From the IMG/VR virus record IMGVR_UViG_2571042487_000002, positions 1 through 34,042 of that record: a stretch of DNA of 34,042 nucleotides; one strand, 5' to 3'. Below the pieces are notes generated by a model. That model saw only the letters and a list, made by a program, of their open reading frames with translations. It did not search any database and had not been told where the DNA came from. Positions 50 to 2,522 of this stretch are shown one piece after another (position 1 is the first letter of the stretch; every line of letters starts with the position of its first letter). Source of the stretch: a virus. Lineage: Duplodnaviria; Heunggongvirae; Uroviricota; Caudoviricetes. A program made the translations under genes and the position numbers.

Positions 50-2314
50 GTGAAAGAGCTGTGCTATGGATCTGTTTGCAGTGGAATTGAAGCCGCGAGT
101 ATTGCCTGGGAACCGTTGGGTATGCGTCCGGCGTGGTTTGCTGAAATCGAGCCTTTTCCATCTGCCGTTCTTGCGCACCGCTGGCCCCATGTCGCCAACC
201 TTGGCGACATGACAAAACTTGCCAAAAAAGTCCTGGCTGGGGAAATCGAATCCCCTGATGTGCTCGTCGGGGGTACGCCTTGTCAGGCATTCAGTATCGC
301 GGGCTTACGTGGTGGGCTTGATGATGAACGCGGCGCGCTAACTTTGAAGTATGTGGAGCTTGCAAATGCAATTGACGACAAACGGTCTGAGTCCTTCCTC
401 AAACCGACAGTTATCGTCTGGGAAAATGTCCCAGGAGTCCTGTCATCGGCAGATAACGCCTTCGGATGTTTCCTTGCCGGATTGGCTGGAGAAGATGCGC
501 CATTTGAACCAGGTGATCGACCTGAATCAGGAAAAAGTAACGCGTTCTGGCGGTGGGATGGCAAAACCGGTTGCCATGCTCCAAAGTGGCCGCAGTGTGG
601 TTGTATTTATGGACCGCAGCGAAAGGTGGCCTGGAGAATCCTTGATGCCCAATACTTCGGAGTGGCACAACGACGCCGACGCGTGTTTGTTGTCGCAAGT
701 GCTCGAACAGACCTCGATCCCGCAACGGTACTTTTTGAGTTCGAAGGCGTGCGCCGGGATATTGCGCCGAGCCGAAAAAAGAAGGAAATCGCTTCCGCCA
801 TTATTGCAAATGGCGCTGCAATCAGTGGCGAAAGCCTAAATCCATGCCTACACGCTGACATTCCACCCGGTATGAAATCGACGAAAGCCGTAAACGCTTT
901 CAGGATGGCAGCATTTGGGGAATATATTGACGATGAAACCGCATCGACAGTAAAGGCAAGAGATTTTAAAGATGCCACTGACCTTGCCGTTTTTAGCAGC
1001 ACAGGAGCAGGTTTTTGGTCAGAAGGGCATGGTACATTGCGGGCACGTGAGCAAGAAAGCCATGAGCATCTTGTTACATTGGCTTTTCCTGAGCGTATGA
1101 GCGGTACACAACATGCTGCAACTAAGAATACTTCACCATCTCTAATGGCTAAAAATCCAACAGCTGTTTGCTATGAAGTAAGAAACGCAGAAGTAGCTGT
1201 CCGCCGTCTTACCCCTGTCGAATGTGAAAGGCTGCAAGGTTTTCCTGATGGGCATACGTTGATCCCGACGGAAAAGCGTAAAAAAGTTAATTCAGATGAA
1301 CTGGCATATCTTCGCAATCACTATCCAGATTTAAGCGAAGAAGAGGCCGCGATGCTTGCAGCTGACGGACCGCGTTACAAAGCGATCGGCAATAGTATGG
1401 CAATACCAGTAATGCGCTGGATTGGCGATCGGATTACTAAGGCCGTATGTCGGCAGAAAGAAGGAAGTAAAACAAAAGAGCGAAAAGTTAAACCAGCGGC
1501 AGAATTCGAACGGTCCATATTCAAATGGGCTGGTGGAAAATTTGGTGTTCTGGAACAAATCTTTCGCTATTTGCCAGAAGGGAAGCGCCTGATTGAACCT
1601 TTCGTTGGTGGCGGAGCTGTCTTCATGAATGCCGGATACCAGGAAAATCTGCTAAATGATGTGAATGCTGACCTGATTAACTTTTACAAGACTCTGCAAC
1701 GCGAGGCGCATTCACTTATCACTCTGGCACATCGTTTCTTCCAGGACTACAACACACAGGAAGGATACCTGGCAGTACGGAATGCGTTTAACAAACAAGT
1801 CTATGATGATTTACATCGCGCAGCGGCGTTTTTGTTCCTGAACCGACATTGTTTTAACGGATTGACGCGTTACAACCAGGCCGGTGAGTTCAATGTCGGT
1901 TATGGGAAGTATAAAACTCCGTATTTCCCATTACAGGAGATGGAAGCCTTCCTCGGTGCGGAAGGGCGGTCTGAGTTTGTATGCGGTGATTTTGCAGCGG
2001 TGATTGAAGCTGCCGGAGAAGGAGATGTCATCTTTTGCGATCCGCCGTATGAACCGCTTCCAAATACAGAGGGATTCACGAACTATTCCGGTCATGACTT
2101 TAAGTTTGAAGAGCAAAAACGCCTGGTGTCTCTGTTGACGGATGCTCATCGTCGAGGTGCAAAGGTTCTCATTACTAACAGTGGCGCGCCAAATATCAGA
2201 GAGCTTTATCATGACAGTGGCTTCAGAGTGGAACCTCTTTTTGCCAGACGTTCTGTGTCTTGTAAGGGGGACACTCGAGGTGTAGCTCATGACGTTTTAG
2301 GTATATTGCTCTAA
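50..2314 (+). CDS. dmt: Bifunctional DNA methyltransferase: N-terminal C5-cytosine MTase domain fused to C-terminal Dam-like N6-adenine MTase domain
   Basis: 754-aa ORF with GTG start at 50 just after an in-frame stop. N-terminal half has C5-MTase motifs GGTPCQAFSIAG (PCQ) and VWENVPGV (ENV); C-terminal half has Dam-type FKWAGGK and catalytic DPPY (FCDPPYEPL). Size and architecture match P1 Dmt. Confidence 0.9.
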   Translation: MKELCYGSVCSGIEAASIAWEPLGMRPAWFAEIEPFPSAVLAHRWPHVANLGDMTKLAKKVLAGEIESPDVLVGGTPCQAFSIAGLRGGLDDERGALTLKYVELANAIDDKRSESFLKPTVIVWENVPGVLSSADNAFGCFLAGLAGEDAPFEPGDRPESGKSNAFWRWDGKTGCHAPKWPQCGCIYGPQRKVAWRILDAQYFGVAQRRRRVFVVASARTDLDPATVLFEFEGVRRDIAPSRKKKEIASAIIANGAAISGESLNPCLHADIPPGMKSTKAVNAFRMAAFGEYIDDETASTVKARDFKDATDLAVFSSTGAGFWSEGHGTLRAREQESHEHLVTLAFPERMSGTQHAATKNTSPSLMAKNPTAVCYEVRNAEVAVRRLTPVECERLQGFPDGHTLIPTEKRKKVNSDELAYLRNHYPDLSEEEAAMLAADGPRYKAIGNSMAIPVMRWIGDRITKAVCRQKEGSKTKERKVKPAAEFERSIFKWAGGKFGVLEQIFRYLPEGKRLIEPFVGGGAVFMNAGYQENLLNDVNADLINFYKTLQREAHSLITLAHRFFQDYNTQEGYLAVRNAFNKQVYDDLHRAAAFLFLNRHCFNGLTRYNQAGEFNVGYGKYKTPYFPLQEMEAFLGAEGRSEFVCGDFAAVIEAAGEGDVIFCDPPYEPLPNTEGFTNYSGHDFKFEEQKRLVSLLTDAHRRGAKVLITNSGAPNIRELYHDSGFRVEPLFARRSVSCKGDTRGVAHDVLGILL

Positions 2315-2334
2315 TAAATTTATTAGTGTAATAT
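2305..2334 (+). promoter_or_regulatory. Overlapping inverted pair of C1-repressor operator-like sites with embedded candidate sigma70 promoter
   Basis: 2305-2321 is a perfect ATTGCTCTAATAAATTT; 2316-2332 on the opposite strand reads ATTACACTAATAAATTT. Candidate -35 TTGCTC (2306-2311) and -10 TAATAT (2329-2334) with 17-bp spacer. The first operator overlaps the dmt stop codon. Confidence 0.6.
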
Positions 2335-2340
2335 CGCCTC

Positions 2341-2522
2341 AATGAATCGTGATTTATAGAGCGATTTAGCTGTTAGCCGCGACAGGCGCGGCGGTAAGCA
2401 TGGCTGGGCCTAGTCCTCCCAGACAAACCACCGAGTTGCCAGGTTGACCATGCGCCTAAGTGGCAACTCCGAAGTGCGTTACGAGCTTCCAGTTTGCCCA
2501 TCTTCGGGTGGGCGTTTTTTTT
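2341..2522 (+). ncRNA. Candidate structured leader or small RNA (~180 nt) ending at an intrinsic terminator
   Basis: Lies between the operator-overlapped promoter and the terminator; contains GC-rich hairpins (e.g. GCCGCG-ACAG-CGCGGC at 2377-2393; AGTTGCCA...TGGCAACT 8-bp stem); no ORF longer than ~15 codons. Confidence 0.3.
2496..2522 (+). terminator. Rho-independent terminator (stem GCCCATC/GGTGGGC with TTCG tetraloop, then T8)
   Basis: Stem 2496-2502 pairs with 2507-2513 (one G-U), tetraloop 2503-2506, T-run 2515-2522. Confidence 0.65.

Follow-up and report, generated by a model that had tools for sequence, protein, structure and literature searches.

We analyzed the DNA between dmt and the tRNA genes of the ban (helicase) operon in a virus of the Caudoviricetes (IMG/VR record IMGVR_UViG_2571042487_000002; "the window" is the whole stretch of 34,042 nucleotides from this record). 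By sequence comparison, positions 1800-5400 of the window are 98.5-99% identical to bacteriophage P1, and they are near to P7, RCS47, SJ46, and further P1-type phage-plasmids. Coordinates from a richly annotated P1 record, AF234172, can be converted to the window by adding 299, and hits of the covariance model described below agree with this offset (2060-2187 of locus L001 corresponds to 2359-2486 of the window). In AF234172, dmt ends within a [quoted passage not shown] The record also has a "dicF-like region" (a misc_feature at 2130-2231, which is 2429-2530 on the + strand of the window), followed by tRNA-Asn and tRNA-Thr, tciABC, a third tRNA, and ban. In other words, the P1 annotation already includes the repressor-controlled promoter of this operon.

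A preliminary description of this DNA placed the operators and the promoter correctly, but it missed that they, and the label "dicF-like region," had been public since the P1 genome was annotated. As first written, the observation was largely a rediscovery. What is new, relative to the annotation and to Rfam, is that the leader of the operon contains a defined, covarying RNA domain; that this domain lies directly upstream of DicF in most E. coli genomes; and that domain, cargo, and terminator form a modular arrangement, of which P1 has a variant without the DicF seed.

Operators, promoter, and terminated leader

The first C1 repressor operator, Obana (formerly Op72a), is at 2305-2321 on the + strand and matches the 17-bp consensus ATTGCTCTAATAAATTT with 0 mismatches. 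It is annotated in AF234172, and it covers the end of the open reading frame (ORF) of dmt, which ends at 2314 with a TAA stop codon at 2312-2314. The second operator, Obanb (formerly Op72b; ATTACACTAATAAATTT), is an inverted copy with 2 mismatches at 2316-2332 on the - strand, and it overlaps Obana by 6 bp. Across the window, we found 10 matches to the C1 operator with at most 3 mismatches, while just 0.18 would be expected from shuffled sequences. The annotated sigma-70 promoter, P1ban (2306-2334, + strand), is embedded in the two operators: the -35 hexamer (TTGCTC, 2306-2311) lies within Obana, and after a spacer of 17 nt, the -10 hexamer (TAATAT, 2329-2334) overlaps Obanb. The coordinates of the P1ban feature in AF234172 are identical to those of the hexamers that we found in the window, and the operator sequences coincide as well, so this is the same element; the preliminary description had reported the same perfect operator over the stop codon, the same inverted operator, and the same hexamers. 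At this element, the window differs from AF234172 by minor variation only (T8 instead of T6 behind the terminator, and one base at 2468).

The hexamers of P1ban are a weak match to the consensus (7 of 12 positions, by hand count), and a generic promoter scan did not call P1ban. Because of this, the case for the promoter rests on the P1 annotation and not on sequence statistics. Going by that annotation, C1 (and Lxc) would bind at these operators and repress transcription from this start, which is probably near 2341. The generic scan also found no further promoter-like site on the + strand between the terminator and ban, which is weak evidence, since the same scan misses P1ban. Other sites in the window that resemble C1 operators, with 1-3 mismatches, are at 12373, 15997/16046, 18138, 29165, 33438, 33902, and 33985. 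Those at the end of the window (33438-34001) are clustered in a way that recalls the region of multiple operators close to c1.

From a start near 2341, the leader would run for about 182 nt, to the end of an intrinsic terminator at 2495-2522 (+ strand). The terminator is a G+C-rich hairpin that is directly followed by a U-tract. Its stem of 7-8 bp has 7 pairs, closed by G2496-C2513 (5 of the 7 are G-C), plus U2495-G2514; the C(UUCG)G tetraloop has UUCG at 2503-2506; and after the G comes U8 (T8 in the DNA, at 2515-2522). This site was called by our terminator scan, and the hairpin, folded alone, has a predicted energy of -12.8 kcal/mol. According to the ORF list and the tRNA calls, there is no tRNA and no plausible gene ahead of it. 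Here too the preliminary description holds up, as it had proposed a leader of about 180 nt that runs into a UUCG-tetraloop terminator with T8 before any tRNA or gene. Terminator-like sites are no more frequent in 1800-5400 (4 sites) than in shuffled sequences (3.7); nevertheless, the exact hairpin is kept in all of the P1-type loci that we examined, including D6-type phages that have a different leader upstream. In Rfam, no family matches over the leader, just weak terminator look-alikes (nuoG, RyhB, and anti-hemB) on the hairpin, and two RNA-seq papers on P1vir make no mention of the leader.

Near its 5' end, the leader has a P1-specific hairpin (2343-2368, + strand; AAUCG.. with ..CGAUU), which is found in both the minimum-energy and the ensemble folds. 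This hairpin is identical across P1- and P7-type loci and is missing from the lambdoid copies that we describe below. Overall, the folding energy of the leader is modestly better than that of shuffled sequences (z = -1.86, or z = -1.25 for the conserved domain alone). Folding energy by itself is unremarkable; the real support for the structure is covariation.

A covarying RNA domain shared with the DicF locus

Positions 2377-2469 (+ strand) form a conserved structured RNA domain. The domain is about 77% identical to an element that precedes DicF in the Qin prophage, and our covariance model (R1) matches the window at 2359-2486 with 98.4 bits. From the alignment of distinct versions, hairpin 1 pairs 2377-2381 with 2387-2391, all on the + strand like the other elements of the domain. 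An outer helix of three pairs (2393-2395 with 2430-2432) encloses hairpin 2, whose inner part pairs 2404-2408 with 2418-2422. Pyrimidines make up the end of its loop, as the run UCCU in the window and, in most versions, as UCCU(U/C)C. Hairpin 3 pairs 2433-2441 with 2461-2469 around a near-invariant loop of 19 nt, and part of this loop (2448-2453) probably forms a pseudoknot with 2398-2403. The lambdoid copies have an extra closing helix of 8 bp, GUUGUGGC with GCUGCAAC or GCCACAAC, and the P1 equivalent of this helix is weak.

We checked the pairings in an alignment of 100 loci that was built with a model. Its 57 distinct sequences sample few lineages, and their retrieval required part of the hairpin 3 loop. 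Across the 57 distinct sequences, standard pairs are found in 96.2% of cells, versus 33-56% if the partners are slid. Similarly, 10 pairs have changed on both sides, versus 0-4 in the slid versions, and 0 of 500 shuffles reached the observed score. For example, U-A has become C-G in hairpin 3 (in 7 sequences), in the outer helix (in the P7 type), and in the pseudoknot (in the P1 type). Hairpin 2 occurs as CGGGG/CCCCG, CUGGG/CCCAG, or CCAGGUG/CACCUGU; in the P7 type, it was swapped for a lambdoid version and still pairs. The loops and the pseudoknot are more strictly conserved than the stems. The hairpins are one conserved RNA domain that is supported by compensatory changes. The preliminary description had noticed GC-rich hairpins in the leader, and these are present, but it missed that they are a single covarying domain that is common to lambdoid prophages. 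The domain is absent from Rfam 15. The "dicF-like region" in AF234172 spans only the 3' half of it, and although the region has a name, neither the domain structure nor the terminator is described there.

Alternatively, the interval might encode a small protein, and ORFs of 27-75 amino acids do overlap it, on both strands. Also, the records for JL22 and SJ46 have "hypothetical protein" features over the interval. However, T6, T7, and T8 coexist among near-identical phages, and between the window (T8) and the P1 reference (T6), each ORF that spans the T-run differs in its length or terminus. Hairpin 2 has indels of lengths that are not divisible by three, and the substitutions in the stems are compensatory. 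We rejected this idea, which seems extremely improbable.

To see where the domain occurs, we used positions 2336-2540 of the window as the query for a sensitive DNA search of 5,426 complete E. coli genomes. Full-length matches were found in 493 genomes and correspond to P1-type plasmids. In contrast, 4,428 of the 5,426 genomes have matches to 2377-2471 only, with about 77% identity (77-79% by BLAST). These matches to the domain are mostly chromosomal, with up to 8 copies per genome. In the Qin prophage of K-12, the domain is flanked by ydfC and dicB, and 25 nt separate its end from DicF; mEp460 and other lambdoid phages are arranged likewise. Thus, the element is found in P1-type phage-plasmids and in the lambdoid prophages of over 80% of complete E. 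coli genomes. A scan of IMG/VR with the most conserved loop found 120 loci. In a looser scan of species genomes with a gapped pattern, only the copies in Shigella, in Escherichia (with species other than E. coli), and one in Serratia symbiotica are real. Most of the 120 loci from the looser genome scan turned out to be chance matches, and the taxonomic range is under-sampled.

The P1 leader and the DicF locus (Qin and other lambdoid prophages; RF00039) share this homologous domain of about 95 nt, with about 77% identity and compensatory changes, and in both an intrinsic terminator follows. Both lie within a repressor-controlled early operon of a prophage. P1 also has the spacer that is found after DicF in lambdoids, placed upstream of tciA. 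Unlike the DicF locus, P1 lacks the DicF seed. The hairpin of the P1 terminator is unrelated to that of DicF and much stronger, and it lies about 25-26 nt past the domain instead of about 40 nt, and the P1 domain is promoter-proximal, while that of the DicF locus is in a 3' untranslated region. In the dicBF operon, Rho-independent termination downstream of ydfC sets the 3' end of the 53-nt DicF, RNase E generates its 5' end, and read-through transcripts carry dicB (PMC5069750, PMC9438474). At the level of RNA, the leader links the ban operon of P1 with dicBF, an early operon of lambdoid prophages. It also means that the long "untranslated region containing dicF" harbors a conserved domain with covariation for which no RNA family has been described.

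Some lambdoid copies vary at the start of the domain. In Qin of K-12, there is a partial duplicate of the domain start (AAAAGUCAGACCAUAACGCGAAAGCGCAUGGCGAGGUAG) about 100 nt upstream of the full copy (L003, 2395-2440). In the variants L011, L048, and L205, such upstream sequence is joined directly to the domain, so that the 5' strand of the closing helix is missing.

Exchangeable segments, the terminator, and possible roles of the leader

What lies between the domain and the terminator is highly variable: we found at least 9 unrelated types of sequence in this stretch. Among about 130 loci, 100 have the DicF type, 17 have the P1 type, and eight other types make up the remainder. Yet in 68 of 69 distinct downstream sequences, a hairpin and U-run that resemble an intrinsic terminator lie within 170 nt past the domain, and in the lambdoid copies, the distance from domain to terminator is 30-60 nt. 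The P1-type segment (CGAAGUGCGUUACGAGCUUCCAGUU; 2470-2494, + strand) takes the position that the spacer and the DicF seed have in Qin, and it is one of the at least 9 modules found 3' of the domain. The P1 copy is thus a P1-specific member of a platform that comprises a conserved domain, an exchangeable segment, and a terminator. This arrangement would make DicF one of at least 9 cargoes of a shared platform.

Our best explanation, to which we assign a probability of roughly 60%, is that a C1-repressed early promoter makes a terminated RNA of about 180 nt and that read-through extends into the tRNA, tci, and ban genes. Once C1 no longer represses the promoter, transcription would begin near 2341. 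The domain (2377-2469) would be made first, and RNA polymerase would then meet the strong intrinsic terminator. Most transcripts would stop there, which would yield a highly structured RNA of about 180 nt that might be stable or might be processed further, and that might act in trans. The rest would read through to give a transcript with tRNA-Asn and tRNA-Thr, tciABC, the third tRNA, and ban. In addition, the terminator would keep transcription from dmt out of the operon. Besides the identity with the annotated P1 features, the statistics of the operators, the call and stability of the terminator, and the homology and covariation of the domain, with a terminator almost always behind it, this explanation is supported by the lack of any ORF that is conserved across the leader and by the presence of the DicF-to-dicB spacer further down the P1 operon. 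The preliminary description had offered a small RNA or an attenuator as alternatives. Because the homologous DicF operon does both, by analogy the P1 leader is probably both at once (PMC5069750, PMC9438474). It had also raised the idea that downstream expression needs antitermination, and nothing here indicates that antitermination is required. Small RNAs that arise when transcription ends early within an operon, such as SroC from gltIJKL, would be another precedent: a single promoter yields both a short RNA that is terminated and an mRNA that results from read-through (PMC9438474). RNAs of the SroC type come from the 3' regions of coding genes, while the short RNA of P1 would be the very first product of its promoter and would be dominated by the folded domain.

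We surveyed the contexts of the terminator across the 119 loci in IMG/VR that have the exact P1 hairpin. The domain is upstream of the hairpin at 97 of these loci, and at 87 of the 97 there is also a perfect Op72a no more than 200 nt away. Of the others, 21 are of the D6 type, with a different, long leader and without dmt or a P1-type operator, and at the remaining locus the context is unrelated. Because the hairpin is kept behind other leaders, it appears to be a general stop signal and a stable boundary between modules, and in P1 it would also have to end transcription from dmt. The preliminary description of the hairpin was accurate, but its occurrence behind other leaders, and hence its role in stopping transcription from dmt, was missed. 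The T-run is polymorphic even in near-identical phages (T7 at 71 loci, T8 at 15, and T6 at 11), and the D6 type has T6 without the preceding G. This variation in length (at 2515-2522 in the window) could tune the efficiency of termination.

The D6-type phages retain the P1 terminator and everything downstream, while dmt, Op72, and the domain are replaced by a leader of about 700 nt. In phage D6 itself (L246, 2380-2526), that leader ends with a long hairpin, AAGAAAGAAGCCGACU...AGUCGGCUUCUUUCUU, followed by UGUGUGAGAUGUAGCGUA and then by the terminator. The domain model has a weak match in phage D6 (L246 2180-2293; 11.5 bits, E = 0.018).

These contexts raise the question of whether the hairpin and T8 merely terminate the dmt unit and so insulate the ban operon, in which case the leader might be a functionless relic of recombination with a lambdoid early operon. 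As noted above, the hairpin is behind unrelated sequence at the 21 D6-type loci and in one more context. Also, dmt ends 180 nt upstream of the hairpin, on the same strand and with no intervening terminator, and the P1 operon has several pieces that derive from lambdoids. On the other hand, a relic would be expected to decay. Instead, the pairings are kept by compensatory changes across the P1, P7, and lambdoid lineages, including the swap of hairpin 2 in P7, and the promoter and operators are positioned so that the domain is the first thing to be transcribed. Overall, we think that a functionless leader is unlikely. Termination of dmt transcripts is itself compatible with our best explanation, as the terminator can serve both units.

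Several other results weigh against a short regulatory RNA with read-through. First, the P1 segment (2470-2494) is short, at about 25 nt, and its unpaired probabilities indicate that it is partly base-paired in weak local pairings, with no evident single-stranded seed. Second, the DicF model (RF00039, with a gathering score of 48 bits) has no match in 1800-5400 at E <= 1, nor in 2290-2560 at E <= 10, while in the same search on Qin it scores 76.7 bits. Third, we computed crude duplex energies with 34 start regions around ftsZ, and the P1 segment ranks ftsZ 26th, but the power of this comparison is low, as the DicF control ranks only 7th. Fourth, given the strength of the hairpin and its U8, few transcripts would be expected to pass without help, although control of ban is attributed to this operator. 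The P1 leader is not a DicF gene: it belongs to the same locus family, but with a different cargo or none.

As for the role of the domain, it may be a scaffold for processing or stability, or it may aid read-through. We give the first of these roles a modest probability. By analogy to DicF, the domain might ensure the biogenesis or stability of a short, 3'-terminal small RNA of the Hfq type, with RNase E (or possibly RNase III or RNase P) cutting just downstream of the domain. The product in P1 would be the variable segment and the terminator hairpin, with a length of about 30-50 nt and with phage-specific targets. The cut by RNase E that makes the 5' end of DicF is just past the domain (PMC5069750, PMC9438474), and RNase E-dependent processing of the 5' end and binding of the 3' product by Hfq are reported for DicF only (PMC5069750). 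A hypervariable segment, with at least 9 types, beside a conserved domain fits the idea of exchangeable seeds on a fixed platform. Furthermore, the 3' end of the P1 RNA would have UUU, then a stable hairpin with a long U tail, as is typical of small RNAs that bind Hfq. RNase E prefers to cleave at RN|WUU, and CAG|UUU at 2490-2495 fits this preference. However, a cut at this site, which is the best RNase E-like site, would leave little beyond the terminator hairpin. With just 25 nt or so, partly paired, the P1 segment offers little single-stranded cargo, and no target emerged from the low-power duplex test of the 34 start regions.

The second role would be in cis: as an antitermination element, the nascent domain might modify RNA polymerase or block the terminator hairpin, and so let early transcripts pass. 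The domain is always immediately upstream of an intrinsic terminator, with distal genes that are expressed from an upstream promoter, and the stricter conservation of the loops and the pseudoknot is as expected for a binding surface. We saw no recognizable antiterminator of the N type among the small proteins encoded upstream in Qin or mEp460. Reading from the sequence, an alternative pairing of 6 bp, between CCGAAG at 2469-2474 and CUUCGG at 2502-2507, could compete with the terminator. But this pairing is invariant in the P1 set, so covariation is uninformative, and we saw no equivalent pairing in the lambdoid copies. The lambdoid terminator, 30-60 nt away, demonstrably works to make the 53-nt DicF (PMC5069750), and the D6-type phages retain the terminator and the downstream genes without the domain.

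The putL and putR RNAs of phage HK022, which modify RNA polymerase to cause antitermination, are candidates for a functional analogy only. Like the P1 domain, they are structured nascent RNAs near a repressor-controlled early promoter and ahead of terminators that must be passed, and the distance of the P1 domain from the start site (about 36 nt) is similar to that of putL (PMC9378689). The structures differ, as putL and putR are two long stem-loops of about 70 nt (PMC9378689), and the conserved domain has three hairpins, a closing helix, and a pseudoknot. In HK022 (20000-40751), the R1 model finds nothing significant even with filters off (the best hit has 7.6 bits and E = 0.44). All told, antitermination by the domain seems quite improbable to us.

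More broadly, positions 2377-2469 might represent an undescribed class of phage RNA elements with an activity of its own, which could be to bind polymerase or a host factor for read-through or to act as a processing platform for small-RNA seeds that are exchanged. DicF would then be only the commonest cargo, and P1 would have a stripped-down version under direct control by C1. We are doubtful of this, although a mechanism of its own would make the domain considerably more interesting. P1 is the cleanest system for studying the function of the domain, which is transcribed first, from a single well-controlled promoter, with a strong terminator at once behind it. Thermo-inducible c1 mutants are standard tools for P1, and the classical bac crr mutants of P1 show elevated expression of ban. 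Knowing the function of the domain would also account for the expression of ban and the phage tRNAs past the terminator.

The operon downstream of the leader

Beyond the terminator, 2523-2700 is non-coding and almost identical between P1 and D6, with more G+C-rich hairpins (for example, at 2632-2655 and 2671-2706). Rfam's "permuted tmRNA" model has a match at 2510-2616, which we discarded, as it is below threshold (26 bits versus 47, E = 0.013) and is not supported by ARAGORN.

Between the leader's terminator and tciA, 2700-3945 is an array of repeated, RNA-like modules. The 5' boundary, ACACAACAGGTAAGGGC, is found at 2703, 3142, 3357, and 3840, and the 3' boundary, CTTACCGTTGTGATGAATGC, is found at 3218, 3414, 3647, and 3908. 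Because these boundaries are complementary to each other, each module would be a long stem around a variable insert. Neighboring modules are also bridged (GUUGUGAUGA at 3225-3234 with UCAUCACAAC at 3349-3358). Two true tRNAs sit in the array, and related phages have tRNA-Ser or tRNA-Tyr between tRNA-Thr and tciA. From its sequence, the array appears to be a series of cassettes, of tRNAs and tRNA-like RNAs, that are linked by conserved joints for processing or recombination. One module (3146-3225) has the stem ACAGGUAAGGGUA...UACCCUUACCGU around a T-arm-like sequence, GGGTTCGAATCCCT, and may be a degenerate tRNA or a tRNA-like RNA; it was not called by ARAGORN or by Rfam's tRNA model.

A second piece of the ancestral leader is just upstream of tciA (3917-4030, + strand), with 78% identity to the spacer between the DicF terminator and dicB of Qin. 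Because of this homology, tciA is in the position of dicB relative to the leader. The same piece matches Rfam's STnc100 family below threshold (42 bits versus a gathering score of 47). Similarly, the spacer between the third tRNA and ban (4855-5039) is 78% identical to 9256-9433 of L065, which is just upstream of the domain in a lambdoid variant with a cargo other than DicF. The third tRNA itself (4778-4853) is tRNA-Met (CAT) according to ARAGORN, while in the P1 reference it is tRNA-Ile2 (trnI, ileX-like), which is lysidine-dependent.

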